A stretch of 26,578 nucleotides of DNA from an uncultured Deinococcales bacterium (GCA_964247135.1 CAXTTL010000042.1:1-26578), one strand, 5' to 3'; shown: positions 1 to 26,578, counted from the stretch's first letter. Notes: generated by a model from the letters alone, not told the origin. Numbers and translations: made by a program.

Positions 1-4
1 GGAT

Positions 5-268
5 TTGTACGACAAGTTGACCGAAGAATTCACGCTCGAGCAGGCGAGCGCGATCCTCGGGCGCGATTTGCGGGAATTCTGGACATACTTTCCAGTCCTG
101 CGGCTCAGCTACCCAGGTTTAAAACTCGAGTACACCCCGACGCAGATTGTGCTCAGCAGCGACCCAAGTTTCGAGATTCTCATCCCCGCCAATTCGGGTG
201 TGGTCGCCGTTGGCGGTTTGTCCGAAATGGAGAATAGAAAGGTCAATCATGTGGTACTTCGTATTTGA
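5..268 (+). CDS. Hypothetical protein, probably 5'-truncated by the window edge
   Basis: The frame is open from the window start and its stop overlaps the next gene. No recognisable motif. Confidence 0.55.
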   Translation: MYDKLTEEFTLEQASAILGRDLREFWTYFPVLRLSYPGLKLEYTPTQIVLSSDPSFEILIPANSGVVAVGGLSEMENRKVNHVVLRI

Positions 269-596
269 AGCTCTTTTTGCGCTTCTCGGATTCGCGCTCA
301 GCCTGGTCGTGGGACTGTTGATGGTCATCGTGAGGCTGTTCAAGCCAGTAACCGACGAAATCCTCAACCACCTCAACCGAGCCGCCAGCAGTGCAGGACA
401 ATGGTGCGCCCGAGCGATTCGCTCGAGCTTGCAACGGGCGGCGCGGCGCGTCAAACAACTTGGTGTGCATTGGAAAAACCGCCAGCGCAAGCCGTGGTTT
501 AAACGCACCAAACGACCCACCAAAAACACCCAAATCGAAGGCCGCGATATCGTCGACGCTTACGTCGGACAGGGCAGTTATTCCAACAAACCCTAG
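249..596 (+). CDS. Hypothetical membrane-anchored protein (115 aa)
   Basis: ATG at 249 gives a hydrophobic segment (MWYFVFEALFALLGFALSLVVGLLMVIV) followed by a basic tail. It overlaps the upstream ORF. Confidence 0.6.
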   Translation: MWYFVFEALFALLGFALSLVVGLLMVIVRLFKPVTDEILNHLNRAASSAGQWCARAIRSSLQRAARRVKQLGVHWKNRQRKPWFKRTKRPTKNTQIEGRDIVDAYVGQGSYSNKP

Positions 597-605
597 GAGG
601 AAATC

Positions 606-1043
606 ATGGCTCACCCCTATCACCACGCCGTCTCGAGCGCCAAGCAATTCGGCGGGCAAGCCGAGGAGTACCAAAAAATCCACGACTGGTTTGACGCCAG
701 CAAAAGCCTGATGACCTTGCCCCATCACCGAATGCTCAGACATCACAGCTTCGGCATTTTCGAGTGCGAGGCGGTGTTTGGCACGACCATCAAACTCTCC
801 ACCGGCAAAGAAATCCCGCTGCGCTGGATCGGCGAGCAACACGTGCGCGAAGACCTGGGTTACATCCCGAGTTTTGAGGAGTGGGTGGTTGCGGTGGCTC
901 GAGGAGGCTTGGACAAACAAGGACGACCTGTTCCAGAACCGTGGATGCACGCTCGAGCGCAAAAGCTCTCCAAAGACCTGACCGAACCTATAAAAACATC
1001 GATCGAGCAAACTGTTCACGCTTGGCAAGGAATTGGCCCATGA
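606..1043 (+). CDS. DUF6915-like His-rich protein
   Basis: Motifs MAHPYHHAxSS, IHDWFDxSK, HRxLRHH, GEQHVREDLGYIPS and EPWM match the DUF6915 family as I recall it. Strong RBS AGGAGG lies upstream. Confidence 0.8.
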   Translation: MAHPYHHAVSSAKQFGGQAEEYQKIHDWFDASKSLMTLPHHRMLRHHSFGIFECEAVFGTTIKLSTGKEIPLRWIGEQHVREDLGYIPSFEEWVVAVARGGLDKQGRPVPEPWMHARAQKLSKDLTEPIKTSIEQTVHAWQGIGP

Positions 1044-1708
1044 GCCAAGAAGTCGCCTTTCAAATCAAGCTGCAGGTCGAAGGTCCAACGCTGAGCCTCA
1101 ACGAGCGAACCAAATTGATGATCAACATCTCAGAAGCGCTCGAGCGCCAGCGGGCAAACGTTGGCTTTGGTTGTCAGGATCACGCGGTGACAGCATTCAC
1201 TTGCCAAGTCATGCCACAGGCGCAAGCGCCCATATCTGCGGTGATGCTCGAGCCGCAGCGGGTGATGTTGGTCGAACCCATCAATCTTGACGAGTACAGC
1301 GAGAACCGACGTGCTCAAGGCTTTGAGTACGAACTGCAAGCGCTAATCGATTGGTTGCGTCTCGAGCATTCCTGGGTGCGCAAACTCGAAATCCACTGCG
1401 CGACGCGCAGCGAGCTTGACGATGAAAATCAGCACTACACCAGTTTCACCGCCCGCACGAAAATCATGGCTGAAGATGACCTCGACAAAATCGCCAAGTT
1501 GATCGAAGACCCCGAGGTCGACGTTGAGGAATTCATTGAAGGTGTCGAAAATGAAATTGACGATTACCTGAACCAAGACGGATTCAGCACGGAGACCGCC
1601 GAGATGATCGAGGCGCTGGACGAAAGCAAAATCAGTGTTGACGTCAGCGAAAACCGCAGCTTGCTACCGATGACGAGACTCTATACCGAAATCCTGCCAA
1701 CTTCTTAG
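1040..1708 (+). CDS. Hypothetical protein with highly acidic C-terminal region (222 aa)
   Basis: ATGA overlap with the DUF6915 stop. A 60-residue C-terminal stretch has 23 D/E and 3 K. Confidence 0.75.
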   Translation: MSQEVAFQIKLQVEGPTLSLNERTKLMINISEALERQRANVGFGCQDHAVTAFTCQVMPQAQAPISAVMLEPQRVMLVEPINLDEYSENRRAQGFEYELQALIDWLRLEHSWVRKLEIHCATRSELDDENQHYTSFTARTKIMAEDDLDKIAKLIEDPEVDVEEFIEGVENEIDDYLNQDGFSTETAEMIEALDESKISVDVSENRSLLPMTRLYTEILPTS

Positions 1709-1735
1709 CGTGTCAACTCGTCAAGAAGTCAACTT
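1696..1735. repeat. 8-bp-period array, parS-like
   Basis: gccaactt cttagcgt gtcaactc gtcaagaa gtcaactt; same unit type as the arrays upstream of parA. Confidence 0.55.
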
Positions 1736-1753
1736 GCTCAAAGAGGAGAACAT

Positions 1754-2068
1754 GTGAACCCCATTCCAAGCGTTCGAGTGGTGCTCACTGCTAAAGATCA
1801 CACCCACCGACTCATCTTCAATGCAGCACCCTATTTCAATGGAATCGAGATACACGAACTTCAACGCCAGCTCGAGACCAACGATCAACGGTTGCTGCAA
1901 AACATTGCCCTGGGGATGTCGCGGCACGAGGTTTTGGTGAATCACTTCCTCGCCGCCTTTGCCATCTCAAAAACCAACCGACAAGAACAGGGTTTTGACA
2001 CCAAACTCAATCGAGACGACCTCAGCACCTACCTCGAGTTTCGTCAAACACGGCCAGGAGACTTATGA
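1754..2068 (+). CDS. Hypothetical protein (104 aa)
   Basis: RBS GAGGAG, GTG start, and ATGA overlap with the downstream ATPase. Confidence 0.65.
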   Translation: MNPIPSVRVVLTAKDHTHRLIFNAAPYFNGIEIHELQRQLETNDQRLLQNIALGMSRHEVLVNHFLAAFAISKTNRQEQGFDTKLNRDDLSTYLEFRQTRPGDL

Positions 2069-3081
2069 CACCAATGCAGCTCATCCCAGTCCTTCACACC
2101 CTCTTCACCCAGCCCAAAGCCCGTCCAGTGATGCTCTGGGGCGCACCGGGCATCGGAAAAAGCTCAATCGTCGCCCAGGTCGGCAAAAGCCTCAAGTTGC
2201 CGGTGATCGATTTGCGACTGTCTCAACTCGCGCCGACCGACTTGAGGGGTTTGCCCGTGCCAAACTTTAAAAGCGGCTTGTCGCACTGGCTTCCCCCAAC
2301 CTTCCTGCCCCGAGACGGCGTGGGCATCTTGTTCCTCGACGAGATCAACCAAGCCCCACCGGTGATGCAGGCGATGGCTCAACAATTGATTCTCGACCGG
2401 CGTTGTGGCGAGTACGAACTCCCCAACGGCTGGCGGATCGTCGCGGCGGGCAACCGCAACAACGACATGGCGGCGGTGTATGACATGCCTGCCCCACTGG
2501 CCAACCGCATGTTGCACTTTGAACTCGCCGCCGACCCAGCCTCATTTTTTGAGCACGCCGCCAGTCAACACTTCTCCGAGCGCGTGATTGCCTTCTTGCA
2601 TTTTCGTCCAAACTTGTTGCACCAAATCAACACCGAACACGCCTTCCCAAGCCCGCGCTCCTGGCAGATGGCGAGTGAACTGCTCGAGCTGGGCTTAAAG
2701 ATTGACAGCGCGGTCGGTGTCGCGGCGTGCGCGGAATTTGAGGTCTTTGAACAGGTCTACAACCAACTGCCAAACATTGACGCCATCCTGGCGGGCAAAG
2801 GAGCACGAGAAAAATTCCCAAGCGACGAACAGCCGGCCGCCAGGTATGCCACGGTGATCGCAATTGCGCTGCGAAGCGACGATGACAAAAAAGCAGAGCA
2901 CGGTCTAACTTGGCTGCAAAGCGTGGCACACGCCGAATTTTTGCAACTCGGTTTGATCCAAACCAGTTTGACCCTCAAACGACACGGCAAGGCGGCAGCC
3001 TTTTACTCACTGAGCGCCCAAAAACCTGGCCTTCAAAAACTGGTGGAAGCCATCCACCACGCCAAAGCCGCCGCAGCCTAA
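2065..3081 (+). CDS. MoxR-like AAA+ ATPase
   Basis: Walker A GAPGIGKS, DLRLSQLAPTDLRGLP, Walker B ILFLDEIN, sensor AAGN, Arg finger LANRM, and PSPRSW. Confidence 0.92.
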   Translation: MTPMQLIPVLHTLFTQPKARPVMLWGAPGIGKSSIVAQVGKSLKLPVIDLRLSQLAPTDLRGLPVPNFKSGLSHWLPPTFLPRDGVGILFLDEINQAPPVMQAMAQQLILDRRCGEYELPNGWRIVAAGNRNNDMAAVYDMPAPLANRMLHFELAADPASFFEHAASQHFSERVIAFLHFRPNLLHQINTEHAFPSPRSWQMASELLELGLKIDSAVGVAACAEFEVFEQVYNQLPNIDAILAGKGAREKFPSDEQPAARYATVIAIALRSDDDKKAEHGLTWLQSVAHAEFLQLGLIQTSLTLKRHGKAAAFYSLSAQKPGLQKLVEAIHHAKAAAA

Positions 3082-3092
3082 AGCGAGGACCA

Positions 3093-3281
3093 ATGAATAT
3101 TCAAGACGCGATCAAAAGCCTCGCAAGCTCACACCAGAGCGAACGTGACATCGCCTTCAAACTCCAAGCCCAGCACAACAAGCTCGAGGTCGCTCGAGCT
3201 TTGGATCACATGCGGCGAACGGGCGAAATCGAACAAGTTGAGTCAGGCGAGTACCACAATCCCAAACGAGGACAGCCATGA
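3093..3281 (+). CDS. Small winged-helix DNA-binding protein (62 aa)
   Basis: RBS GAGGA precedes the ATG at 3093. SERDIAFKL...EVARALDHMRRTGEIEQVESGEY fits a wHTH pattern. ATGA overlap with the next gene. Confidence 0.6.
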   Translation: MNIQDAIKSLASSHQSERDIAFKLQAQHNKLEVARALDHMRRTGEIEQVESGEYHNPKRGQP

Positions 3282-3865
3282 CCATGCTGCTCGAACCAAC
3301 AAGCCCATCGATCCCCTTCAGAGCGCTCGAGGGGAATTTGGCGACCCCTCAGAGCGACCTCCCGGTGTTTGATGAATCGATGCTCAAGCACCAAAATGAG
3401 GTCCGCGTGGCACGTTGGTGGCACGGAGTCTTTGAACTGTGCGTCAAGGTCGGTCACGACGAAACCACCACCCATGACGAATACGAATCCCTCAAAACAG
3501 ATCGCGGCGATCCGCGACACGACCCCTGGGAAATCACCAAAGACGGTGAGGTCAGACTGCCAACCACCAACGAAGGCAATCGTTATTTGATATCGATGGA
3601 CTACAGCCCATTTGAAATTCTGAAGGCATTGCTCGAGCAAGGTCTCAGCATCTCCCTGGCGTGTCTCAGCACCATGAACATGGTCGCAAAGCGAGCCGAG
3701 TCGCTGATGGACTGGTTGAACGACGAATGGACGTATGTTTGGGTCGAACTCAAAATCACAAAAGGCAATCGTGTCATCCACAAGGATTCGTGCTTGGGCG
3801 TCGAAGACAGACACGATTACTTGGAAACATTCGTCAATGGGGTGATCCATGATTTTTTCGAGTAA
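3278..3865 (+). CDS. Hypothetical protein (195 aa)
   Basis: RBS GAGGA, coupled to both neighbours. No recognised motif. Confidence 0.7.
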   Translation: MTMLLEPTSPSIPFRALEGNLATPQSDLPVFDESMLKHQNEVRVARWWHGVFELCVKVGHDETTTHDEYESLKTDRGDPRHDPWEITKDGEVRLPTTNEGNRYLISMDYSPFEILKALLEQGLSISLACLSTMNMVAKRAESLMDWLNDEWTYVWVELKITKGNRVIHKDSCLGVEDRHDYLETFVNGVIHDFFE

Positions 3866-4268
3866 CCCTTACCAGCGCGATAACATCAAACGCCTGCTCG
3901 AGCGTTACGACAAAATCTACAACTTCACGCAAAGCCAACTGCGCCTGATGGAGATCATCAGACCGAGATATCCGATTTTCGACAAAAACTTTTCGAGCCA
4001 AGCCCGACAATCGCTCAACATCTGTGGACTCAACCTCGCCAAGTACCTCATGCCGGCGCACACACGATGGGATCGCCAAGATCACTTTGATGAATACGAT
4101 TGGTTCAAAGCCGGTCTGTGCGTCGCGGCGCTGGTGGTCTGGTACAGGGATTTGGAGGACGAACCCTCAATCTCAAACAGACCGCCGATTTTAGTTGGGT
4201 CGGACCTGATCCAAAAAATACCGCTCTTGCAAGAAGCTCAAGACTGGGGGGTACACATTGAACGCTGA
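3849..4268 (+). CDS. Hypothetical protein (139 aa)
   Basis: Overlaps both neighbours in operon fashion. Confidence 0.65.
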   Translation: MIFSSNPYQRDNIKRLLERYDKIYNFTQSQLRLMEIIRPRYPIFDKNFSSQARQSLNICGLNLAKYLMPAHTRWDRQDHFDEYDWFKAGLCVAALVVWYRDLEDEPSISNRPPILVGSDLIQKIPLLQEAQDWGVHIER

Positions 4269-5361
4269 AACCGCACGACAGCGCCTTTCGGGCACCACCA
4301 TTTTGATGCTCGAGCAGCAAGCGTTTTTTGGAACGCTGCTGATCAACGCCAAGGTAAGCCTCTGTGACGCGGTGACCGCCTACACCGATGGACAACACAT
4401 TTTCATCGGCAGCGGGTTTTGCCAACGACTCTCGAGCCAAGAACTGCTGGCGGTACTGGCTCACGAGGTGCTACACATCGCGCTGTGCCACGTGCAACGA
4501 ACCGAATACCGCAACCGTCAAATCTGGAACATCGCCTGCGATGTGGTGGTCAACTCGATGCTCGAGGCTGCGGGATTTGAAGTTCCAAAAGGTGCGATTC
4601 TGATACCAGCATTTGATGGCATGGACGCGGAAACCATCTATGACTCGCTGCTCGGCGATCACGAGCAAGCTGCCGAAATGGGGATCGTGCCTGGATTTGA
4701 AAACGGCGAGGTCATCCCCAGCAATGACCTCAACCACGACAACCCAGTCGCCAACGGGGCGAGCCACCAACAAATGTGGAAAAACACCATCGAACAAGCC
4801 GCAAATTCTTACAAAGCTGGCACGCAGCCCGCATGGTTGAAGCGCTTGTTGCAAAGGTCCGCCGCTAAAATTGATTGGCGCAAACTGCTCAGTCGATACT
4901 TCACCAGCGCCAGGGACGACTACAGCGGTTTTGACCGGCGCAACTTGTACCGCAGGTACTACCTGCCACAACTGGCGTCAGAAACCGTCCAAGTTGCCCT
5001 GTGCATCGACACCTCGGGCAGCATCGAGGGCGAAATCCTGGCGCGTTTCCTCGGCGAAGTTCAAAGCCTAACCCAGAGCACCAATGCCAATGTGAAGCTG
5101 TATTACGCCGACGCGGACATTTCAGGACCCTATCCGCTCAAACGGCGCGGAGCATTGCCCGCGCCGGTGGGCGGTGGCGGCACAGATTTCCGCCCATTCT
5201 TTGATGCCATCAAGCCAGGAAAGTTCGACCTCTGTGTCTACCTGACCGATGGTTACGGCACTTTCCCCAATCAACCACCGTCCATGCCGTGCCTCTGGCT
5301 GGTGACCGAAGACGGCATCAAGCCAGACGCCTTCCCGTTTGGACGCGTCGTCCAACTTTAA
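4258..5361 (+). CDS. DUF2201-family metallopeptidase (HExxH) + vWA domain protein
   Basis: AYTDG, HEVLH, NIACD, MIDAS DTSGS, GGGGTDFRP and YLTDGYG. This family is the usual partner of MoxR-type ATPases. Confidence 0.9.
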   Translation: MNAETARQRLSGTTILMLEQQAFFGTLLINAKVSLCDAVTAYTDGQHIFIGSGFCQRLSSQELLAVLAHEVLHIALCHVQRTEYRNRQIWNIACDVVVNSMLEAAGFEVPKGAILIPAFDGMDAETIYDSLLGDHEQAAEMGIVPGFENGEVIPSNDLNHDNPVANGASHQQMWKNTIEQAANSYKAGTQPAWLKRLLQRSAAKIDWRKLLSRYFTSARDDYSGFDRRNLYRRYYLPQLASETVQVALCIDTSGSIEGEILARFLGEVQSLTQSTNANVKLYYADADISGPYPLKRRGALPAPVGGGGTDFRPFFDAIKPGKFDLCVYLTDGYGTFPNQPPSMPCLWLVTEDGIKPDAFPFGRVVQL

Positions 5362-5375
5362 GCCTCAACGGACAA

Positions 5376-5714
5376 GTGGTGAATACCCTGGAACGAACCG
5401 CCAAACAAATCGATCTCGAGTTAAAGACCAACGACCATCAATTCACCCACAGCCGCATCTCTCTCGGTTACAGCAAAAACTCGAGGTTCAACCTCAAACT
5501 CTCGATCATCCCAGTCCAAATTACGCCGTCAGGATTTAACTTCCAACCCCTTGGAGACTGGACTTGGAAAAACTTGCCGTTGGGCACGATCGAACGCTAC
5601 AGCAACAAAGCGCTGCAACCGTACATCGGGAAGCTCGAGTCTTCGCTTGAGACCAAAAGCGGCGACATTGGGATTTCATTGACAGGTCGCTGCAAGAGTA
5701 TCAACTTCAACTGA
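5376..5714 (+). CDS. Hypothetical protein (about 112 aa; start uncertain)
   Basis: GTG codons at 5376 and 5379 lie just after the DUF2201 stop. The ORF is followed by a hairpin. Confidence 0.55.
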   Translation: MVNTLERTAKQIDLELKTNDHQFTHSRISLGYSKNSRFNLKLSIIPVQITPSGFNFQPLGDWTWKNLPLGTIERYSNKALQPYIGKLESSLETKSGDIGISLTGRCKSINFN

Positions 5715-5732
5715 ACCCTTAAAAAATCCCGT

Positions 5733-5768
5733 CAGACCCTCGAGAGGCTCGAGGGTCTGTATTTGTTC
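5733..5768 (+). terminator. Hairpin (12-bp stem) with weak T-rich tail
   Basis: CAGACCCTCGAG-agg-CTCGAGGGTCTG then TATTTGTT, immediately before the RBS of the GHKL gene. Confidence 0.55.
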
Positions 5769-5779
5769 AAGGAGCCATT

Positions 5780-7495
5780 ATGATTCGAGCACAACTCCAC
5801 CCACAACTGATCGCAGAATTGCCCAGGATGTTCGGGGGGCTTCAATGCATCATGACCGAAGTATTTCAGAACGCCTCGCGTGCGGGCGCGAAAAACGTCA
5901 GCATCACCAATCTGGACGATCACACCCTGCTGATCGAAGATGACGGTTGCGGACTTGACCAACCCCAAGAGCTGCTCGAGGCAGGATTTTCGGGCTGGAC
6001 AGGCGACGTGATTGACCCGGCGGGCTTGGGCATCTTTTCCTTATTCAACAGCCAATTGGTCAAAGCAGTCAGCTTCCAAAGTCGCCACTGGTTGGTCCGC
6101 ACGACACCGGCAGAGGTCTTGGGTGGGCTGGAAATTCAAGTGACGAGCGCACCCGAAATTCTTGGCTTTCGCGTCATCATCGGGTTTCTCGAGGGTGTGA
6201 CCCTGTTTCAAAGAGACCGCCGTGAAAAGTCGGTGTTTGTCGACAACCCAGAAGCGCTCTTGAAAACCGCACGTTCCTATTTTCCGTTTGAACTGAGCTA
6301 CAACTCCAAAATCATCCCAATTGCCGAACATCCAAAAACCCTAGTGGTTCAAGGCGAATACGGTACGCTCGAATGGGGCATTGATTGGACAAAGCGCTTC
6401 GCGCCAGTCTGGCAAGGGCAGCGCCTGTTTGGCAAAAACTGCGTTGAATTGTTGGAAAAACTCGCCAAACAAAGCCAGTACCCGAAACTGGCAGCCCGAA
6501 TTTTGGAGTTTAGCCTGGTCTGGAGAATCAACCCAAACTCTGGGCTGAGACCAAAACTCCCAGACCGACACTGCCTGCTCGAAACACCGCTGCTCGAGCG
6601 GCAACTCAAAACCATGTTGGATGACTTGCTTGACGCGGTCATCGAGCACGGCAAAAGTCTCTCGAAAGACTGGGGTGAGGTGGTTAAGTCCAATGACGTG
6701 AAAGACGACCGATTTTTGTACGCACTCTCAAAACGTTTGCTGCCCGTGTTGGGATGGTATCTGTGCAGCACCCCAAAGCTAAACAGCGTTGTCTTCCAAT
6801 ATCGCCATCACGAGGGCATTACCGTCGACATGGAAGAAGTCGTTGTTTTTGACCAGGGCTGCATTTTGATCCAGGATCAATCCACCTGCGATACCATCAA
6901 CTTGCTGCGAAATTACGGCTTTGATTACCCACGTGCAAGTCAGCATCCCTCGGGGCTGAAAACCAAAATTCAGTACCTCAGACACGACAATCCCGATACA
7001 GATTTAGCCGTCAGGCTGGTGCAAGAAATTCGCGTGGGAAACACGGAACTGCCGTTTGTGTGGCACGTCGAAAATGACCAAACCAAACCAGGTTTTGTGC
7101 TCGCCCTAAACCTTCACGACGCCCTCAAGGTGTTTCGTTCGAACTCTCAATTTAGCCGTGACATCGAGACCCTGATTGGCTTGTCGATGGACAAAAAAGG
7201 AGATCTTTGGGACAACGACATTTTCGTCAGCGACGAGGGATTTCAAGCAGAGGTGCTCAGACGCCTGGTGATTGAGCAGCTCGTTAACAGTTACGACCGT
7301 GACCACAAGTTCAAAAACCTTGAACTCGAACGCAACCAACTCGAGGTTCAAGTTGAACGTTGGCAGGCACTGCAGCGCGAAATGCCAAATCTGACCGATG
7401 ACTACGCGCTGGGAGAGGTCAAATCCACGATTCAAGGCTCGATTGCAGTTGCGCTCGAGGTGCTCAAACGGCGAATGCACGACCTGGCAGCCTAA
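5780..7495 (+). CDS. GHKL (HSP90/MutL-like) ATPase domain protein with uncharacterised C-terminus
   Basis: N box EVFQNASRAGA, G1 box IEDDGCG, G2-like DPAGLGIFSL, RBS AAGGAG, and a coiled-coil-like C-terminus. Confidence 0.85.
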   Translation: MIRAQLHPQLIAELPRMFGGLQCIMTEVFQNASRAGAKNVSITNLDDHTLLIEDDGCGLDQPQELLEAGFSGWTGDVIDPAGLGIFSLFNSQLVKAVSFQSRHWLVRTTPAEVLGGLEIQVTSAPEILGFRVIIGFLEGVTLFQRDRREKSVFVDNPEALLKTARSYFPFELSYNSKIIPIAEHPKTLVVQGEYGTLEWGIDWTKRFAPVWQGQRLFGKNCVELLEKLAKQSQYPKLAARILEFSLVWRINPNSGLRPKLPDRHCLLETPLLERQLKTMLDDLLDAVIEHGKSLSKDWGEVVKSNDVKDDRFLYALSKRLLPVLGWYLCSTPKLNSVVFQYRHHEGITVDMEEVVVFDQGCILIQDQSTCDTINLLRNYGFDYPRASQHPSGLKTKIQYLRHDNPDTDLAVRLVQEIRVGNTELPFVWHVENDQTKPGFVLALNLHDALKVFRSNSQFSRDIETLIGLSMDKKGDLWDNDIFVSDEGFQAEVLRRLVIEQLVNSYDRDHKFKNLELERNQLEVQVERWQALQREMPNLTDDYALGEVKSTIQGSIAVALEVLKRRMHDLAA

Positions 7496-7508
7496 ACACG
7501 GAGCAGAC

Positions 7509-10671: not shown

Positions 10672-10680
10672 ACGTCTCCC

Positions 10681-18992: not shown

Positions 18993-19027
18993 AAAGACCC
19001 TGTGCCACACAGGGTCTTTTGTATTTG
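18993..19027 (+). terminator. Intrinsic terminator
   Basis: AAAGACCCTGTG-cca-CACAGGGTCTTT followed by TGTATTTG. Confidence 0.75.
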
Positions 19028-19082
19028 TGAAAAAACCTCGAAACGAAAATTAGAAACAAATACAGTGACTTTGAGGTGAACC

Positions 19083-19610
19083 ATGAACGAATTAAAGGTA
19101 AATGGCCAAACGCTTTCCATCGAACAAGAACTGCAAAATGCAATTCAAATTAAACATGGCGGAGTTCGCGCAAGAAGAAAGGCAGTGAAAGTGTTGACAC
19201 AAGCGTATATGCCGATTGCAAGTTACGTGGCACAACAAGTTCACGCAAGTTTGGTGTTTCACTGGAAACCGTTATCTGTCGAAGCAATAATTGATTTCGC
19301 ACAACAATTGACCAAGGTGGCGGTCAAAAAATTGCGGCGACCAATGTGGGCAGATGACGCTCCAAATTTCAGAGAAGGTTTTGTTCTCGAACTGCTAGAG
19401 TTATTGAGACACGGTTTGGCGATGGATTATTGCACGTTTGACTACCAACTGCTCACTTCGCGCGAAAAACAACACCGTACAGAGCACGATCTGAAAATGA
19501 TCATGTTCAAAAACTTTGAGTTGTTTGAAACGATTTGGATGGTTCCGGACAGACAAGTGAAAGCCGTTAACCGTTTTCTTAGTAGTTTCGATAACACTCA
19601 GGCTGCCTAA
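19083..19610 (+). CDS. Hypothetical protein resembling sigma-70 regions 1.2-2 (175 aa)
   Basis: RBS GAGGTG. The pattern LSIEQELQNAIQIKHG...AVKVLTQAYMPIASYVAQQV...LSVEAII...AVKKL aligns with sigma regions 1.2, 2.1 and 2.2. The CDS call is more secure than the sigma call. Confidence 0.6.
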   Translation: MNELKVNGQTLSIEQELQNAIQIKHGGVRARRKAVKVLTQAYMPIASYVAQQVHASLVFHWKPLSVEAIIDFAQQLTKVAVKKLRRPMWADDAPNFREGFVLELLELLRHGLAMDYCTFDYQLLTSREKQHRTEHDLKMIMFKNFELFETIWMVPDRQVKAVNRFLSSFDNTQAA

Positions 19611-19754
19611 AGCGACCTGCTGCATGAACAATCGCCACCATTGTTCATGCTCTTTGAAAAATCTAAGCGGTTGGTTTCAGACACGAAAGATTCATCCAAC
19701 CCTGTGAAATTAACTTCAAAAAGCTTGAAAACAATAAATTTACGAAAGGACAAT

Positions 19755-20885
19755 GTGAACCACATCCAACCAAAACCCAATTTTCCGTTTGACAGTTTCC
19801 CCGTGTCACTCGAGCTGCGAATCTTGCGAACCCTCTCCAAAGTGGTCAGTTTGCGTGGACCCGAGGCGTATCAAGCCGTCAACTTCGACAAACAAGTGGA
19901 CGCCGCTGAATTCCACAGGTGCATCGAAGGACTCACATACGCTCAACATCTGGAATCAGACGGTCTGGTCGCGCCGAGCGAGTACGGCATTTTGCCAAAA
20001 GGTTTGCGTCGCCTCGAGCAGCTCGAGGCACGCCACCGTGAGCGGTACATGCAACACCTGGATGCGATGATCTTGAGGACTATCAAGGACAGCCCAAAAC
20101 CCTTGTACGGTTTACAGGTCCAACGGGGCATCAAGACCTTAACGCAAGGCGAATTTGAACCGACTTTGGGCGAACTTTCTCCGCCACTTCATCGCCTAAT
20201 CTTTGCGAATGCCGTGGCCACAGATTTGGCAAAACAAGAGGCACCGCCTCGACCGCCTGTCAGTCACTTCTTGCTCACCCCCAAAGGTGAAGCCTTGCTG
20301 GTCAAGAAAGAAACATCAATGAACAAACCCGGACAGCGCCTCAGCCGCAAAGAACGGCGCCAGCGTCTCAAAATCGGCGCATTGATCATATTGCCTGGAA
20401 TTCTGGGCAGCCTCGCCCTTGGGGTCATGAGCTTCGTCCCCGTACAGAGCAGCGCCAAACTGCTGTCAACCCGTACTGACGGCGTTAAGACCTACCAGGT
20501 CGAGCGCGGTCACACGACTCAACCGGTCGAATACAACGTCCAACCACCAGTCGGCGGCGTCCATTCGCCACGGGTTGCCCCATGTGTGATCGTGGAAACC
20601 TTGATCTCCAGTGAAGAAGCGGTTCACAGCTTGGAGCACGGCGCCGTCTGGATCACCAGCCGCGACGGGTGGAAGGCGGGCGATAAAACCGCGATCGTCA
20701 GCGCCCAAAAGACCTACCCCGCAATCTTGGGCAGCCTCGTGCCTTTTCAAACCAGCCGTTATGTGCTGAGTGCCTGGGGCAAGCAATTGCCGCTCGATAA
20801 GCTTGACCCCAGAAAGCTCGAGCTTTTTTTGAGAGAATTCAGCAACAAGGGACCCGAAATCGTCAACTGTCCCACTGGAAAATAA
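19755..20885 (+). CDS. Fusion: two winged-helix (second PadR-like) domains + TM helix + DUF3105-like domain (376 aa)
   Basis: GTG at 19755 after AAAGGA. PadR-like: LDAMILRTIKDSPKPLYGLQV...LHRL...LTPKG. TM: IGALIILPGILGSLALGVMSF. DUF3105: VEYNVQPPVGGVH, VHSLEHGAVWI, LSAWG, GPE. Confidence 0.75.
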   Translation: MNHIQPKPNFPFDSFPVSLELRILRTLSKVVSLRGPEAYQAVNFDKQVDAAEFHRCIEGLTYAQHLESDGLVAPSEYGILPKGLRRLEQLEARHRERYMQHLDAMILRTIKDSPKPLYGLQVQRGIKTLTQGEFEPTLGELSPPLHRLIFANAVATDLAKQEAPPRPPVSHFLLTPKGEALLVKKETSMNKPGQRLSRKERRQRLKIGALIILPGILGSLALGVMSFVPVQSSAKLLSTRTDGVKTYQVERGHTTQPVEYNVQPPVGGVHSPRVAPCVIVETLISSEEAVHSLEHGAVWITSRDGWKAGDKTAIVSAQKTYPAILGSLVPFQTSRYVLSAWGKQLPLDKLDPRKLELFLREFSNKGPEIVNCPTGK

Positions 20886-20987
20886 CTCGAGTGTTTTGTG
20901 CGGCAAACGCTTGGAGGTGGAAACAAGATTACAAGTATTAATTCGGACAGTAAGCAACAAACCTTAAACGTTTGAAAGGAAGTTGAG

Positions 20988-21491
20988 ATGTCGTTAATTA
21001 AAACTTTTACCCTGAAGCTTATCCCCAGAAGCGCACTGATCGTGACCAGCATATTGATGCTTTCATTGTGCAGCCAAAGTTTTTTAGACAGCGCACCGCC
21101 CGCATCGGAAATTGGTTTTGCGTTGGTGAGCGTATTGCGCGTCTACCTGTGCAGTGTTGGATTGATCTTGGGGGCGGTAGGAAGTACATTCTTCTCGCAA
21201 CATTACAAAACGGTTGAGGGGTACAAAAACAGCCTTGCTGTCTTCCCAATGCCAACTTTTAGTATTTGTTGCATTGCGGTTGTTTCAAGTTTTTACCTGA
21301 TCGATTTTTTAAAACCGCTTATCCAACAGAGTTGGGGAAGCTTCCCCGTCACCTCCTCAGCAAGAGTGTTGTGGTTTGAGCAACGTGCGGCGTTCAGTTT
21401 CTTGTTTTTGCTCGTTTCCACCTTGTTTTTTCACTCGTTCGGGTTGCGAAAATTGGAACCTCCCCAACCTTCAACAATTTCAGCCACTTGA
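20988..21491 (+). CDS. Hypothetical integral membrane protein (about 4 TM)
   Basis: Four hydrophobic segments, RBS AAAGGA, and a T-rich composition. Confidence 0.65.
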   Translation: MSLIKTFTLKLIPRSALIVTSILMLSLCSQSFLDSAPPASEIGFALVSVLRVYLCSVGLILGAVGSTFFSQHYKTVEGYKNSLAVFPMPTFSICCIAVVSSFYLIDFLKPLIQQSWGSFPVTSSARVLWFEQRAAFSFLFLLVSTLFFHSFGLRKLEPPQPSTISAT

Positions 21492-21514
21492 AACTTTGTG
21501 CATCGCAGTAGTCC

Positions 21515-21541
21515 AAATGACCTCAAATCTTGAGGTCATTT
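21515..21541. promoter_or_regulatory. Perfect 12-bp inverted repeat (terminator or operator)
   Basis: AAATGACCTCAA-atc-TTGAGGTCATTT directly upstream of the RBS of the annealing-protein gene. Confidence 0.55.
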
Positions 21542-21561
21542 TACGTTTAGAAAGGAAAATC

Positions 21562-22206
21562 ATGTCCGAAGAAACCAAAATCGCAAAGACCTTTGACCCG
21601 CGAGACCACTTGATCAAACTCGGCAAGAAAGACTATCTTCCCGTCGCGGGGCGGCTGTTGTGGTTGAATTTCGAGTGCCAGAATTTCACCATCGACACCG
21701 AACTGATCGAAATGTCGGACAAACACGCAGTTTTCAAAGCGACTGTCACGATCACTCAAGGTCAGCATTTGCGCAAAGCCAGCTCATACAAGCGAGAAGA
21801 CCAAAATCACTTTCCAGATTCTGTCGAAAAAGCCTGTACCGGCGCAGTCGGTCGTGCCCTGGGAATGCTTGGCTTCGGTACACAATTCACCGACGAGTTC
21901 GACGAGGTCACCAACAAAACCAATCGACAGGTCGACACAGGACGAGAAACGAAGTACAGCAATCAAAAACCACAACATTCGAGTGCCAACGACAAGCAGG
22001 TCGGTGTGGCAAAACTCAAGGGCATCGTAGGCATGGCGGCAAATGCCTTGGGCTGCCAAGGGGAAGCCCTCAACGCCAAAATGCTCGAACACGCTCGAGC
22101 ATTCAATCCCCAGATTCAGCAGTTGGCAGAATTAAACGATGCCCAGGCCACCCAACTCAAAGACCAATTCGTGCAAATGCAACAGCAAGCCCGCCAGCAA
22201 AATTAA
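21562..22206 (+). CDS. Rad52-superfamily-like single-strand annealing protein (phage-type), 214 aa
   Basis: RBS AAAGGA. Motifs KDYLPVAGRL, AVFKATV and EKACTGAVGRALGMLGFG, then a polar linker and small C-terminal helical domain. Confidence 0.7.
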   Translation: MSEETKIAKTFDPRDHLIKLGKKDYLPVAGRLLWLNFECQNFTIDTELIEMSDKHAVFKATVTITQGQHLRKASSYKREDQNHFPDSVEKACTGAVGRALGMLGFGTQFTDEFDEVTNKTNRQVDTGRETKYSNQKPQHSSANDKQVGVAKLKGIVGMAANALGCQGEALNAKMLEHARAFNPQIQQLAELNDAQATQLKDQFVQMQQQARQQN

Positions 22207-22253
22207 CCACCGAACACAGTGTAAAAAACGCATTGCACACCTGAATTGTCGTC

Positions 22254-22259
22254 TAGAAT
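22254..22259 (+). promoter_or_regulatory. -10 box of a leaderless transcript
   Basis: TAGAAT-tttgcc-ATG (22266), with no SD. Confidence 0.55.
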
Positions 22260-22265
22260 TTTGCC

Positions 22266-22667
22266 ATGCCACGCAGTCCGCACAACACCTACCAAGAACC
22301 CATTTTGCCGATCACGCTCGAAGATCACGCTCGCCTGGCTCGAGCCGCACAAATCCTCGACTGCCCCCAACCGCCGCGCACCACAGCCGGTTACGAACGC
22401 AAGGCGCAATTGCTGCTGGTGGCGAGTCTGCTTAACCCTTGTAAAAAAGAGGCGATGGTCGACTTGTTTTACTGGCTCAGCGTCAACGTGGAACAACTCA
22501 AGCATGAACTCGAGCAACCGCACCGGCAAATGGGAGAGACCTCAAAATTGCTCAAGCTCCAAAACCGCGACTTGCTTGGCCTGATCAAGGTTGTCAAGCG
22601 CCGATTGCACCAACAGCGGCAAGCCAGACCGCTGAATCCAATTCGAATTGCCAATCAACTCAACTGA
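22266..22667 (+). CDS. Hypothetical protein (133 aa)
   Basis: Leaderless-type start and a helical/coiled-coil-like C-terminus. Confidence 0.6.
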   Translation: MPRSPHNTYQEPILPITLEDHARLARAAQILDCPQPPRTTAGYERKAQLLLVASLLNPCKKEAMVDLFYWLSVNVEQLKHELEQPHRQMGETSKLLKLQNRDLLGLIKVVKRRLHQQRQARPLNPIRIANQLN

Positions 22668-22843
22668 ATTTGAAGGCATTCGGGCTGACCTGTGAAAAAG
22701 CCGACATCGGATTTTGGGATCTCAAGTAACCTGAATCCGTGCCCAGGATATCAAATCCTAATCAAAAGCACCCCACGTTCCAGATGTTTCGGAACTTGGG
22801 CTTCCGCCTTTTTCCGTCACTGGTTCAAACAAAGGAGCGTACT

Positions 22844-23107
22844 ATGCGTTCGATTTTGGTTATCAGTGAAAACCGTTGCACGGTCAGATTCATTGCCGAG
22901 AGACTTCGTTCACGCGAAGTACTCGAAAGCATGGCTGGCTTTGACTACCTTGAGCTTGAGGATGGTCGAGATTTGATCTGGGCAGACGATTTTCGTCTTC
23001 CGGGTCAAAGAGTGCTCGTCGGAAATCGGCAACCGCATCCCGAAGAGCAGTTCATCCTGTTAACCAGGCATGGACTTTTCCAACGGTGCGTCTGCGTCGT
23101 GGACTAG
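22844..23107 (+). CDS. Hypothetical protein (87 aa)
   Basis: Strong RBS AAGGAG precedes the ATG at 22844. Confidence 0.6.
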   Translation: MRSILVISENRCTVRFIAERLRSREVLESMAGFDYLELEDGRDLIWADDFRLPGQRVLVGNRQPHPEEQFILLTRHGLFQRCVCVVD

Positions 23108-23232
23108 ACGATACTCGTCGGTTCTGATGCTGAGATCAATCAAAAACCTTTGGTTTTTGGTTGATCTTTTCGCGCAAATTTCAGTTAAACTGCCTTCGAA
23201 AAGGCAGTCATATCAGTCTTGGAAAGAGTCAA

Positions 23233-23697
23233 ATGCCCAAAGCCCAACGCCTCAAATTCTTGGTGCTCGACAACCCCAAAGCACCCTTCATCAGCAACGC
23301 CAGGTTCTCGTTTGAGGACAGCCCCGTCATGGCCCAGTACGCGAAAACGATACGGCTCGAGAACCCCCTGTCCTCGGACGGCTTGTTCTTCAACTTGGAA
23401 ACCTCCGCCTCTGGGGACGCCACGATCAGTTTGTGCCGAGACGACTCGGGAACCAACCTGAGAGATTTCTTGCGCAAACCCGTGATGGCTTATGAGGTTT
23501 TTTCACACCGCGACCCCAATCAACGGGTTTATGCCGAGCGCCGCTTTGTACCAGACACCAAATGGGTGCTAACTCGAAACGGTTTGGTCATGGGGCAGCT
23601 TGGCTGGGTGGAAGACGGCTCTGATGAAATCCAGTATTTCCCAAGCGCCGCCAGCGCCAACGCTCGTTTTGAACGTTTCCAAGGAGTCGGTTTATGA
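23233..23697 (+). CDS. Hypothetical protein, tandem paralog B1 (154 aa)
   Basis: Shares FF...GDxT...NLxDxLxKPVxAY...YAER...W...Q.F.SA with the next ORF. Confidence 0.72.
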   Translation: MPKAQRLKFLVLDNPKAPFISNARFSFEDSPVMAQYAKTIRLENPLSSDGLFFNLETSASGDATISLCRDDSGTNLRDFLRKPVMAYEVFSHRDPNQRVYAERRFVPDTKWVLTRNGLVMGQLGWVEDGSDEIQYFPSAASANARFERFQGVGL

Positions 23698-24221
23698 ACG
23701 ACCCTCAAAGTAAAGAACTAAGGCGACTCGAACGGATCAGGCGATTTCAAGACCCAGCTTACGTAGAGACATTTGAAAATCGTCCAACCCGCAAACTGCC
23801 CGTGTTCATCAATCCACACTCGGGCTTTGAAACCCTCGGGACACAAACCATCGCAGGCGAGGCTGCCATTCGGGTCTTCAACACCCTGCTCGAGCAGGGC
23901 AGTTCCATGTTGGAAGAAATTTTCTTTGAGTTCAGTTGCAACGAGGAAGGCGATTGCACGGTCAACCTCAACCAAGACCATCTGCACTTAAACCTCAAAG
24001 ATGAACTGGACAAACCGGTCGTGGCCTACCTCTTAAACGACAATCCTTCACAAGCAATTTACGCCGAGCGGCACTTGCTCGAGGACCAAGAATTTTGGAT
24101 GGTCACCAAGAATCATAAAGCTCTGCTCCAAAACGGTCAATGGGGAGACTTGAACGCACCCGATGTTCAACATTTTCACAGTGCCCTGGATGCAGACAAG
24201 GGTTTTGAACTCGCCAAATAA
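23694..24221 (+). CDS. Hypothetical protein, tandem paralog B2 (175 aa)
   Basis: RBS AAGGAG and ATGA overlap. NLKDELDKPVVAY...IYAERH here versus NLRDFLRKPVMAY...VYAERR in B1. Confidence 0.75.
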   Translation: MNDPQSKELRRLERIRRFQDPAYVETFENRPTRKLPVFINPHSGFETLGTQTIAGEAAIRVFNTLLEQGSSMLEEIFFEFSCNEEGDCTVNLNQDHLHLNLKDELDKPVVAYLLNDNPSQAIYAERHLLEDQEFWMVTKNHKALLQNGQWGDLNAPDVQHFHSALDADKGFELAK

Positions 24222-24247
24222 ACCTTCACCATTCCCGCCAACCTTTG

Positions 24248-24272
24248 AACCTCGAGCATCTCGAGGTTTTTT
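24248..24272 (+). terminator. Intrinsic terminator
   Basis: AACCTCGAG-cat-CTCGAGGTT followed by a T run. Confidence 0.7.
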
Positions 24273-24335
24273 ACTTGGTGCCATCACCTGTCGCCTTTCC
24301 TCGTCGCAAATAATCAGTTCAAAGGAGAATTAATC

Positions 24336-24488
24336 ATGACCAAAAAGCCCGAACCTCAAAAACCAGTCGACACTTTTACCCCCAACCCACAACCGACCCT
24401 TGTGCCCAAAGCCAACGCCAAACTCGAGTTCATTCAAGCCTTGGTTCATGGTTTCAAAGTCGTGAACGCAAATGGAGGTCACGCTTGA
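24336..24488 (+). CDS. Small hypothetical protein (50 aa), not in the ORF track
   Basis: RBS AAAGGAG. Translates to MTKKPEPQKPVDTFTPNPQPTLVPKANAKLEFIQALVHGFKVVNANGGHA. The stop overlaps the TTG start of the helicase. Confidence 0.65.
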   Translation: MTKKPEPQKPVDTFTPNPQPTLVPKANAKLEFIQALVHGFKVVNANGGHA

Positions 24489-26554
24489 TCCTCAATCCGC
24501 AACAACAAAACGCGGTCGAGCACGATCAAGGTCACGCCCTGGTCGTCGCCGGTCCAGGATCGGGCAAAACCAGAACCCTGACCGCCAGAATCGCCTATCT
24601 GATCGGTGAGGGCGTACCCGCCAACCAAACGACGGCCATCACCTTCACCAACAAAGCGGCTCGAGAAATCAAGAAACGCCTCAGCCTCCAACTCGGTGAG
24701 GCGGTCGGAGAGTTGAACATCGGCACGTTTCACGCCGTGGGCTTGAACATCATCCGGTCCCACGGAACCGCCATCGGTCTGATGGCCAAAATCGGATTGC
24801 TCGAGCAAAGCGAATCGCTATCGGTCATGCGAGAATCATTGCGGGCGCTGGGCATTGAGATCAGCAAAAAAGCTGGCACCACGCAATACCCGGTCTTCTT
24901 GGGTGCGGTCTTGCGCGAGGCGAAAATGAAATTGCTCGAGAGTGCAGATTTGCTCGAGTATTACCGACAGCAAAAGCTTGCCTTCCATCACGGTTTGCCA
25001 GTTGAAATTGCCGCCGCCGCGTACCAGCAGTATGAAAAACGCAGCCGCGCCCGAGGGCTGCTGGATTTTGACGACCTGATCATGCTGGCGGTCAAAATCC
25101 TCAAAACCTCTCCAGAGGCACTCGAGGATTGGAAACTCAAAACCAGTTATTTGCTGGTCGACGAATTCCAAGACAGCAACTCAGCCCAGTACGAACTGAT
25201 CAAAGCCTTTGAGAGCGCCAACGTCATGGTGATCGGCGACGCCGCCCAAGCCATCTATTCCTGGCGCGGTGGGAACCCCAGCATCTTTGAAGACTTTGAG
25301 CGTGAATTCACGGCAAAGCGTTTCGTGATCTCCCAAAATTACCGTTCCTCAGACAGCATCCTGGCAGCCGCCAACGCCATCATGAAAGATGGACTGCAAA
25401 CCATACCCAACCTGGTCGGAATGCAAGGATTCGGCAAACCCGTTCAATTGTTCGTCGCCGACGACGCCGAAACGGAAGCGCAATTCATCGCCGGTGAAAT
25501 CGCCCGAGTCAGCAAAAACCCTCACGCCAATTTTAACGACTTTGCAGTGCTCTACCGAACCAACATCCAATCCCGAGCGCTCGAGCAAGCGCTGGCTCGA
25601 GCGGGCGTGCCCTACAAACTGGTCGGCGGTTCAAGTTTTTGGAGCAGAATCGAGGTCAAAATCTGCATCAGCTTTCTGCGCCTGGTCCAAAACCCAGCCA
25701 ACGACCCAGCCCTGGAGTATCTGATCGAACACGCCCTGCACTTTAAACACGTGCCAGATTGCTCTAAACTGTCCTTGGGCGAAAGCAGCTTGGAGAAAAT
25801 CAAAGCCTACGCCAGACAAAAAGACCTCTCACTGCTCGAGGCTTTCGGCGCCGAATTCCCTGGCTTAAAGGCACCCGCTTTAAATGCCATGCACTGGCTG
25901 TACGAGATCGCCATGCCCAAACTCTTCGAGGAGGCGAGCGACGCGGTCAACCTCCTGACCCAAGTCCTCGAAGCCTGGGGTTATATCGGACAACTTGGTG
26001 CGGAGGCGACAGACCCCGACCAAGAAACCTCCAGGATCGCCCAGGATCGCCTTGAAGGCATTGCCGAGGTCATTGGCATGGCTCAAGAGCACGCCGACCA
26101 AGGAGGCGACATTGAGAGCTTCCTGGAGATCATCACCCTCGAGCGCTCACAGCAAGAACAGCGTTCAATACTCGAGCACGATCCAGCAAGCGACCTCAAC
26201 ACCGGCAGGGTCACCCTGTCGACCATCCATGCCGCCAAAGGGCTGGAATGGAACCGCGTGTTCGTGGTCGGTTTTGACCAAGGCATCATGCCCGCAGGGA
26301 TGAGTTTTGAAAATGAAACGGCTTACCACGAAGAGCGCCGGGTGGCGTTCGTCGCCATCACGCGGGCGGTCGAATCACTGACCCTGACCCGCGCCAGACG
26401 CCGCAGGTTTGGCTCAGAATGGGGCGAGACACAGCCCAGCGAATACCTCAAAGCGCTCGAGCCTCACATCGTCGAAGTCCGTCAACAGACAAATGAACAA
26501 CCGATTCAAGATGTGCAATTTCCTCAGAATCAAAGCGTGATTGCGCTAAACTAA
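24485..26554 (+). CDS. uvrD: UvrD/PcrA/Rep-family SF1 DNA helicase
   Basis: AGPGSGKT, TFTNKAARE, DEFQD, GDAAQAIYSWRG, QNYRS, STIHAAKGLEW and EERRVAFVAITRA. RBS GGAGG. Confidence 0.93.
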   Translation: MILNPQQQNAVEHDQGHALVVAGPGSGKTRTLTARIAYLIGEGVPANQTTAITFTNKAAREIKKRLSLQLGEAVGELNIGTFHAVGLNIIRSHGTAIGLMAKIGLLEQSESLSVMRESLRALGIEISKKAGTTQYPVFLGAVLREAKMKLLESADLLEYYRQQKLAFHHGLPVEIAAAAYQQYEKRSRARGLLDFDDLIMLAVKILKTSPEALEDWKLKTSYLLVDEFQDSNSAQYELIKAFESANVMVIGDAAQAIYSWRGGNPSIFEDFEREFTAKRFVISQNYRSSDSILAAANAIMKDGLQTIPNLVGMQGFGKPVQLFVADDAETEAQFIAGEIARVSKNPHANFNDFAVLYRTNIQSRALEQALARAGVPYKLVGGSSFWSRIEVKICISFLRLVQNPANDPALEYLIEHALHFKHVPDCSKLSLGESSLEKIKAYARQKDLSLLEAFGAEFPGLKAPALNAMHWLYEIAMPKLFEEASDAVNLLTQVLEAWGYIGQLGAEATDPDQETSRIAQDRLEGIAEVIGMAQEHADQGGDIESFLEIITLERSQQEQRSILEHDPASDLNTGRVTLSTIHAAKGLEWNRVFVVGFDQGIMPAGMSFENETAYHEERRVAFVAITRAVESLTLTRARRRRFGSEWGETQPSEYLKALEPHIVEVRQQTNEQPIQDVQFPQNQSVIALN

Positions 26555-26578
26555 AGATATAGCAAAAACCGAAGTCAT

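Follow-up and report, generated by a model that had tools for sequence, protein, structure and literature searches.

CTCGAG is a highly iterated palindrome of an uncultured Deinococcales lineage and is partly shared by a predicted plasmid

The DNA considered here, hereafter the window, is a stretch of 26,578 nucleotides from an uncultured Deinococcales bacterium (GCA_964247135.1, CAXTTL010000042.1:1-26578) and constitutes the complete contig C42 of the host genome G000 (5.09 Mb, 386 contigs, 84% complete). From its replication and partition genes (Table 1) and its accessory distribution, we read the window as an accessory RepA/ParA plasmid-type replicon. A tblastn search places relatives of its RepA, 35-48% identical, on 133 plasmids (81 from Deinococcus and 35 from Thermus), and Meiothermus plasmids carry such relatives as well. 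No DNA of the window was found among 30 relatives of the host, and no terminal overlap of the contig was seen. Throughout its length, the window is densely populated with the palindrome CTCGAG. The present analysis shows that this hexamer is a word of the host lineage of the same class as the highly iterated palindrome HIP1 of cyanobacteria (GCGATCGC), and that the plasmid carries a partial copy of this signature.

Table 1. Features of the window, with positions counted from its first nucleotide.
Feature	Position	Strand	Basis or remark
CTCGAG palindrome, 96 copies	1..26578	no strand	whole contig covered
Three CTCGAG in ssb, one per reading frame	16288..16318	+	sequence inspection
Octamer GCTCGAGC, 29/96 sites (30.2%)	34..26462	no strand	starts: 34, 421, 951, 1138, 1246, 2682, 3192, 3631, 3896, 4308, 6592, 10413, 10830, 11284, 13714, 14877, 15658, 18081, 18526, 18775, 18938, 20816, 22093, 22338, 23888, 24799, 25579, 25595, 26455
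Replication initiator RepA (Pfam RPA, PF10134)	12314..13750	-	profile match, E 1.7e-21
Partition module: ParA ATPase (11001-11552) and small ribbon-helix-helix protein (10681-11004)	10681..11552	-	
SSB (single-stranded DNA-binding protein), 254 amino acids, two matched SSB stretches	15985..16749	+	PF00436
ResIII/DEAD-type helicase	16761..18428	+	
UvrD-type helicase with 11 CTCGAG	24485..26554	+	
MoxR-type AAA ATPase (2065-3081) and DUF2201 VWA/metallopeptidase (4258-5361)	2065..5361	+	
414-amino-acid protein with PadR-type regulator domain and DUF3105	19641-20885	+	

A sequence search finds 96 copies of CTCGAG in the window, i.e., 3.6 per kb, close to the figure of about 95 against about 7 expected that had been given in the initial annotation. 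In 100 dinucleotide-preserving shuffles of the window, the mean count is 6.82 (sd 2.43, maximum 13) and none reaches 96, which corresponds to an enrichment of 13.8-fold. The copies are evenly spread, with 3 to 12 per 2-kb bin and no cluster. According to the gene calls, which are crude, based on open reading frames and made for this analysis, and on which the frame and coding counts given here depend, 75 copies are coding, with 57 in frame 0, 12 in frame 1, and 6 in frame 2, and 21 fall outside the gene calls. The three copies in ssb had been described as falling in different frames, and this is exact: the copy at 16288 is read as CTC-GAG (Leu-Glu), that at 16299 as GAC-TCG-AGC (Asp-Ser-Ser), and that at 16313 as ACT-CGA-GAC (Thr-Arg-Asp). 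The objection foreseen in the initial annotation, namely that the excess might be lost under a shuffle preserving codons and dipeptides, does not hold. With codons shuffled synonymously within each gene, a procedure that preserves the proteins, hence the dipeptides, as well as the per-gene codon usage, the 75 coding sites compare with 15.8±3.5 (maximum 26, n=500). The Markov expectation that had also been suggested was calculated as well, and the maximal-order version was dropped as a null, being uninformative: the fourth-order quotient of the observed and the expected count (O/E) is only 1.24 for the whole genome, because the pentamers CTCGA and TCGAG are almost wholly made up of copies of the motif.

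The same word dominates the host genome. G000 contains 33,925 sites (6.66 per kb, or about one per 150 bp), which make up about 4% of the genome, and CTCGAG is its top hexamer at 24.8 times the mononucleotide and 35 times the dinucleotide expectation. The word is 67% GC, while the GC content is 52.7% for the genome and 52.4% for the window. The density is practically equal in coding and non-coding DNA (6.66 vs 6.79 per kb) and flat along genes, and it amounts to 8.2 per kb in the 60 nt upstream of gene starts. Under the synonymous shuffle, the 27,103 coding sites are reduced to 3,787, and the 17,039, 3,912, and 6,152 sites of frames 0, 1, and 2 to 2,971, 264, and 552, such that the frames lie 6-15-fold above the null (15-fold for frame 1 and 11-fold for frame 2). 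With some 6.7 sites per kb genome-wide and no difference between coding and non-coding DNA, the proposal of a HIP1-like, frame-independent palindrome imposed by the host is borne out. The bases flanking the sites show a weak G...C preference only, one base per side, the rest being near background. The nearest-neighbor spacing is near random (coefficient of variation 0.98) with a three-base periodicity from coding; gaps below 20 bp number 628 vs 1,948 for a Poisson process, and those above 300 bp are about 20% fewer than Poisson.

The palindrome is also written into the proteome. Leu-Glu occurs 21,907 times in the G000 proteins vs 9,259 expected (2.4-fold), the Glu-Leu control giving 9,365 occurrences, and CTC-GAG spells 17,039 of the Leu-Glu pairs (78%), where codon usage without regard to context would predict 1,099 (5%). 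The force behind the palindrome would thus be strong enough to dictate codon choice, and it would have brought some 12,000 additional Leu-Glu pairs into the host proteome.

Alignments with congeners show that the sites are under a constraint that the surrounding DNA does not share. Between G000 and G001 (44 kb, 84.8% identity), 250 of 284 sites are kept (88%) vs 45% of all hexamers and of other NNCGNN words, and between G000 and G005 (263 kb, 85.6% identity), 1,473 of 1,878 are kept (78%) vs 46% of all hexamers. In the latter comparison, the conservation is 82, 68, and 80% in frames 0, 1, and 2 (all hexamers 47, 46, and 47%) and 71% (166/233) in non-coding DNA (all hexamers 42%). The codons themselves behave in the same way, CTC being conserved to 87% inside vs 54% outside the motif and GAG to 88% vs 62%; this codon control is the one applied to HIP1 by Xu et al. 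2018 (PMC5861425, available text). Since the sites are far better conserved between congeners than the surrounding DNA, the force must still be operating.

Most differences between G000 and G005 are single transitions, and one-letter changes hit the outer (59 of 178), middle (61), and inner (58) positions about equally often, so that the constraint applies to the entire hexamer rather than to the TCGA core that had been proposed initially. The other NTCGAN words point in the same direction, as they are not enriched in G000: GTCGAC and TTCGAA are avoided, and ATCGAT has an O/E of 0.96. Among the in-frame sites, 193 differ between G000 and G005, 109 of them non-synonymously and 84 synonymously. 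Turnover of the sites thus takes place by point substitution, often with a change of amino acid.

For the identity of the host, recA served as marker, rpoB having not been found in G000. The closest named RecA, with 87% identity, belongs to a metagenome-assembled genome (MAG) labeled "Deinococcales bacterium", the next-best matches being at most 70% identical. The 21-kb locus of this MAG contains 7.7 CTCGAG per kb and no GAGCTC, to be compared with a median of 0.08 and a maximum of 1.25 CTCGAG per kb at 79 other recA loci from unrelated bacteria, and the statement in the initial annotation that some Deinococcota genomes show a similar enrichment holds. Within the host family (f1), the octamer GCTCGAGC, which consists of the hexamer with its preferred flanks, is present in all 19 genomes, representing five genera, with 838 to 4,448 copies; a control word of reversed letters gives 0-7 copies in 16 of these genomes and 33-165 in the remaining three. 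Across the order (151 genomes), the distribution of GCTCGAGC is patchy. Enrichment is seen in genus g13 and in several genera of family f2, whereas g7, represented by 35 genomes, is flat and g9 (22 genomes) avoids the octamer, with 4-19 copies vs 18-210 of the reversed control. Farther away, CTCGAG is the top hexamer of a Meiothermus taiwanensis plasmid stretch (2.3 per kb, about 7-fold), and a sample of a Deinococcus deserti plasmid shows no CTCGAG enrichment. A plasmid of A. silvanus has a CTCGAG excess of 3.7-6-fold, which codon usage may explain; its use as a case of enrichment without methylation was dropped, as a second 50-kb sample gives 3.7-fold with CTGGAG equally raised.

CTCGAG is thus a top-ranking, GC-rich, palindromic word that is found in all frames and in non-coding DNA, is conserved in excess of its surroundings, and is a trait of a whole lineage. 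These are the properties of HIP1, which is likewise a GC-rich palindrome and top word, present in all frames and in spacers, lineage-wide, and of no agreed function; HIP1 is also conserved beyond codon conservation and spreads by substitution (PMC5861425, available text). Quasi-periodic spacing is a further trait given for HIP1 by Xu 2018. In letters, HIP1 is GC-GATC-GC and the octamer here is GC-TCGA-GC. The two differ in that the present host belongs to Deinococcota and that the word is shorter, being the bare hexamer in the host family. They differ also in abundance, HIP1 reaching 300-2,700 copies per Mb in Elhai's table (PMC4390886), with an over-representation of 15- to 300-fold (Xu 2018, PMC5861425, both as given in the available text), against about 6.7 per kb and a 2.4-fold inflation of Leu-Glu in the present case. 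The alternate HIPs of cyanobacteria (GGCGCC, GCsGC, rCCGGy, and GGGATCCC) resemble the present system in that the flavor varies by lineage, as do hexamer and octamer here, and GGCGCC, which replaces HIP1 in Calothrix PCC 7103, is a six-letter palindrome as well. According to the available part of the same source (PMC4390886), these alternate words reach about 1,000-2,000 copies per Mb, and a HIP-specific methyltransferase is present wherever they are frequent, which is not what was found here. HIP1 itself has the partner methyltransferases DmtA and DmtC (PMC13756078, available text). In the host family, in contrast, no conserved cognate methyltransferase was found.

The DNA uptake sequences of Neisseria (DUS) and the corresponding uptake signal sequences of Pasteurellaceae (USS) are likewise short words that occur genome-wide and inside genes, affect proteins, and belong to competent lineages; they are non-palindromic, 9-12 letters long, and present at about 1 per kb. 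A role in DNA uptake or recombination has now been proposed for HIP1 (PMC13756078, available text). Restriction-modification systems of the XhoI/PaeR7I type share the six letters, but their targets are normally avoided, as in genus g9. The orphan enzymes M.Mru1279II of Meiothermus ruber and M.Mch9957IV of M. chliarophilus also act on CTCGAG and likewise come from this bacterial order (PMC4752239, available text), and no orthologue was identified in the host family. For a Nocardia orphan CTCGAG enzyme, the same source describes motif clusters near dnaA and the replication origin, whereas the present host iterates the word genome-wide. We found no published description of CTCGAG iteration in Deinococcota, Thermus, or Meiothermus in the literature searched, which lay mostly outside subscription journals, and Deinococcus and Thermus go unmentioned in the available text of Elhai 2015 (PMC4390886) and Xu 2018 (PMC5861425).

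Against this background, the window stands out by its low density, which is 54% of that of the genome; only three of the 222 contigs of 8 kb or more, and five of the 297 contigs of 5 kb or more, have a lower one. The initial annotation held that a plasmid had acquired the signature of its host: a plasmid-type replicon with a CTCGAG excess is indeed what is found, but the signature is only partial. The deficit is seen in all its aspects. Leu-Glu is in 1.9-fold excess in the window vs 2.4-fold in the rest of the genome and is spelled CTCGAG in 60% vs 78% of cases, and the opportunities used are 29% vs 42% in frame 1 and 12% vs 50% in frame 2. The three contigs of still lower density all hold plasmid, conjugation, or defense genes. 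Contig C137 carries a primase, ParB, and a transposase; C75 has half the usual CTCGAG density and encodes a coupling protein of type IV secretion and an ATPase of the TraG type (C75:10387-17938) in what is probably a conjugative element; and C112 encodes a giant enzyme of the restriction-modification type as well as a paralogue of the DUF2201 protein found in the window. In G000, mobile DNA thus tends to lag the chromosome in CTCGAG density. The DUF2201 paralogue of this low-density contig (G000:C112:12844-14037) adjoins a 1,499-amino-acid Eco57I-type enzyme, and the pair of MoxR and DUF2201 genes may be a module carried by mobile elements.

It is likely, in our judgment, that the CTCGAG excess of the window is the local trace of a host-wide iterated palindrome and that the window is a partly ameliorated plasmid. 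A directional force at the DNA level would maintain some 34,000 copies in this uncultured Deinococcales family, acting on the full hexamer in every replicon regardless of frame or coding status, and the plasmid, with about half the host density, would represent mobile DNA that has been ameliorated in part. As to the nature of the force, the palindrome might be read as a "self" mark by a dimeric, sequence-specific DNA-binding or DNA-modifying factor, sites that arise by point substitution being retained; this view follows the current thinking on HIP1, in which methylation-linked uptake and recombination, or repair, are invoked, and we regard it as plausible, with somewhat less than even confidence. 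No methyltransferase shared by the clade was found.

For the window alone, an alternative origin of the half density and of its richness in octamers has to be considered, i.e., a past in another host, or mis-binning of the contig. The plasmid would then circulate among Deinococcales with the octamer as their iterated word, or would have left them recently. The octamer makes up 30.2% of the sites of the window vs 12.5% genome-wide (binomial p=3.5e-6), which is the highest share of the 222 contigs of at least 8 kb, and the difference persists within frame 0 (33% vs 10.9%, background 6%). Counted per kb, the octamer reaches or exceeds the density that it has in the host (1.09 vs 0.83), and it is the sites with other flanks that lag (2.52 vs 5.83). 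Chromosomal samples of six genomes of the host family have octamer shares of 9-17%, whereas two genomes from another family of the order reach 68% (G027; 30/44; L121, L253-L255) and 38% (G147; 57/151; L246-L248). Both have GCTCGAGC as their top 8-mer, with some 0.8-1 copies per kb, a length and density similar to those of HIP1. Within the host's genus, moreover, the chromosomal flanks look nearly neutral, the site conservation with zero, one, or two preferred flanking bases being 81, 83, and 84% (p=0.14), and the idea that the octamer is the stronger site is therefore unsupported there. The absence of the plasmid from the 30 relatives and its relaxed usage of GGCC, GTCGAC, TTCGAA, and CTGCAG, which the host avoids, would also fit an origin elsewhere. 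What speaks for the present host is the practically identical GC content and the total absence from the window of seven words that the host avoids (GAGCTC, CAGCTG, CGTACG, CCGCGG, GCATGC, GGATCC, and CCCGGG). The seven contigs of lowest density, taken as a group, have a raised octamer share as well (20.8%), which fits a graded force equally well. We therefore consider another host or a binning error to be possible but rather unlikely; the octamer pattern of the plasmid may reflect former residence in octamer-type hosts, wrong binning, or a graded force.

Concerning the mechanism, a methylation-directed repair ratchet of the type described by Elhai (PMC4390886, available part of section 3.4) is an obvious option. 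An orphan N6-methyladenine (m6A) enzyme would mark the parental strand, and mismatch repair would fix substitutions that create a site, the accumulation being an unselected by-product. Solitary, active type II m6A CTCGAG methyltransferases do exist in M. ruber, M. chliarophilus, and Marinithermus hydrothermalis, where 99.5, 94.1, and 94.6% of the sites, respectively, are methylated and for which the available text lists no endonuclease (PMC4752239); no CTCGAG methyltransferase is listed there for M. silvanus. The new sites, furthermore, come from single substitutions, as a ratchet would have it, and the octamer-iterating genome G027, the only motif-rich one with a methyltransferase of the XhoI-partner type, carries it as a solitary homologue, no XhoI-type endonuclease being found there. 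Given the orphan m6A enzymes in Meiothermus, a methylation link to CTCGAG is possible.

The methyltransferase connection made in the initial annotation is not supported in the host family, in that none of the six small G000 enzymes probed is common to the 19 motif-rich family genomes; these genomes are 57-94% complete, non-orthologous enzymes with the same specificity would be compatible with this result, and methyltransferase specificity is unreadable from sequence. The D12-class enzyme of contig C320 is present in 7 of the 19 genomes, the C5 enzyme of C178 has orthologues in three genomes, and the methyltransferase of C207 in four. A methyltransferase-like gene encoding 466 amino acids (C4:28577-29977) has orthologues in three genomes, two of them with stops. 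The orphan methyltransferase of C189 is strain-specific, no orthologue being found in 30 relatives, the methyltransferases of C14 and C36 adjoin NgoPII-type and PvuII-type endonucleases, and the HsdM-like genes (about 500 amino acids) are either divergent subunits of type I systems or unrelated genes that stand alone. For two gamma-class clusters taken from other enriched genomes, G000 gave no homologue. The type that accompanies XhoI does not qualify either: the XhoI-family endonuclease (PF04555), with an adjacent PF01555 N6/N4 methyltransferase, occurs in 6 of the 151 order genomes and was not found in the host family (0 of 19). The partner type of methyltransferase is present in 30 of 151, was likewise found in 0 of 19, and is commonest in the motif-avoiding genus g9 (15/22). 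The 15 g9 genomes with this methyltransferase type gave no XhoI-family endonuclease, and no PF01555 enzyme was found in G011, a motif-rich genome in a single contig. Apart from the enzymes, the density of 6.7 per kb far exceeds the saturation of about 1 per kb that the ratchet predicts, and words one substitution away from CTCGAG are not depleted. We consequently regard the ratchet as unlikely.

Several of these loci have features of their own. The C189 gene (C189:4856-5632, minus strand) encodes a solitary N6/N4 methyltransferase of 258 amino acids between a DinB-family gene and ftsZ; it has atypical codon usage and was missed by the gene caller. The orthologues of the C4 gene with in-frame stop codons are at G005:C76:182942-184300 and G012:C72:42092-43402. 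Two complete type II pairs are located at G000:C14:36040-37936 and G000:C36:19235-21059. The former consists of an NgoPII-type endonuclease and a C5 methyltransferase and fits the avoidance of GGCC; the latter consists of a PvuII-type endonuclease and an N6/N4 methyltransferase and fits that of CAGCTG. In G031, an XhoI-family endonuclease gene (G031:C1:1095688-1096226) is broken by one TGA and one TAG, and GCTCGAGC is unenriched, with 1,825 copies vs 1,304 of the control.

A neutral bias in mutation or gene conversion, sequence-specific and without function, would have an enzyme of the lineage turn near-cognate words into CTCGAG. Such a process would readily give an equal density in coding, non-coding, and upstream DNA, a flat profile along genes, and a nearly Poisson spacing; it would override protein sequence, and it would leave mobile DNA at intermediate density, as expected for a process that takes time. 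No candidate enzyme was found, however, the neighboring words are undepleted, and the trait is kept across five genera. The signature of very short patch repair is not seen in particular, with no Vsr in G000, no depleted neighbors, and no C-to-T surplus at the CpG (inner positions 58/178). A bias of this kind appears to us a poor candidate.

Two further explanations have a negligible probability. A by-product of Leu-Glu codon and dipeptide usage, to which the predominance of in-frame CTC-GAG among the coding sites (63% in the genome and 76% in the window) might point, is ruled out by the synonymous shuffle and the equal non-coding density, in line with the enrichment of frames 1 and 2 and with codons that are better conserved when they belong to the motif than elsewhere. 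A dispersed repeat carrying CTCGAG, similar to miniature inverted-repeat transposable elements (MITE) or repetitive extragenic palindromes (REP), is ruled out by flanks that are near background beyond one weakly preferred base on each side, by the location of the sites in conserved genes and in all frames, and by orthologous positions that differ by single substitutions.

It is equally clear that CTCGAG does not behave as the target of an XhoI-type restriction-modification system, as the site is 25-fold enriched and the enzymes are found in none of the 19 family genomes. Other words in G000 do show strong avoidance. The single-strand counts are 0 for GAGCTC, 5 for CGTACG, 7 for GGATCC, 11 for CCGCGG, 15 for CAGCTG, and 17 for GCATGC, and GGCC is at 0.016 times expectation. 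None of the 9,391 Glu-Leu pairs is spelled GAG-CTC. We considered whether the complete absence of GAGCTC could be a mirror effect of the motif. This was rejected, as the word is part of a general avoidance of GRGCYC (on both strands, 0 GAGCTC, 10 GAGCCC/GGGCTC, and 2 GGGCCC) that resembles ordinary restriction pressure; RGATCY is also avoided. The GRGCYC specificity is presumably that named BanII/HgiJII.

A number of observations weigh against reading the window as a partly ameliorated copy of a palindrome maintained by the host. The plasmid is assigned to this host by metagenomic binning and by the word usage they have in common, and the tetranucleotide correlation is 0.949 vs a median of 0.975. 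A contig of G008 with a RepA homologue of 46% identity has 3.77 sites per kb vs 3.90 for its host, together with the octamer share of that host, and the notion that RepA plasmids always lag their hosts is therefore not supported. The genomes compared are related and hence non-independent samples. With regard to the force itself, neither the XhoI-partner type nor the two gamma-class clusters are common to the 19 family genomes, and neither Vsr nor a depletion of one-off neighbors of CTCGAG was found in G000. The near-Poisson spacing gives weak support to selection for even coverage, and the conservation data do not separate selection from a drive by biased repair or conversion.

The iteration of CTCGAG in the host lineage bears on a problem that is about thirty years old, in that HIP1, known from cyanobacteria alone, is unexplained. 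The word described here has other letters and belongs to another phylum, and it passes the tests of abundance, frame, and conservation that HIP1 passes, at several times the density of HIP1 and with a proteome that is measurably rewritten. Any explanation of HIPs must then cover both GC-GATC-GC and GC-TCGA-GC, the latter without an obvious conserved methyltransferase. New in this context are the comparison of plasmid and chromosome, the hexamer and octamer flavors, the testing of candidate methyltransferases across the order, and the connection with the published Meiothermus methylomes, and the solitary CTCGAG methylation of the cultured M. ruber and M. chliarophilus makes the idea testable at the bench. 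A more far-reaching proposal, which we put forward as a speculation with small prospects, is that CTCGAG and GCTCGAGC are lineage-specific "self" watermarks of Deinococcales, read by the uptake, recombination, or repair machinery without one dedicated methyltransferase, the flavors marking host lineages. If this were true, the flank pattern of a mobile element, here with 30% octamers, would record the hosts in which it has lived, and the HIP phenomenon would have an independent second origin, open to experiment in cultured Meiothermus. The graded signal on plasmids and conjugative DNA could possibly serve as a clock and as a marker of host history, and it may aid the assignment of plasmids to hosts in metagenomes.

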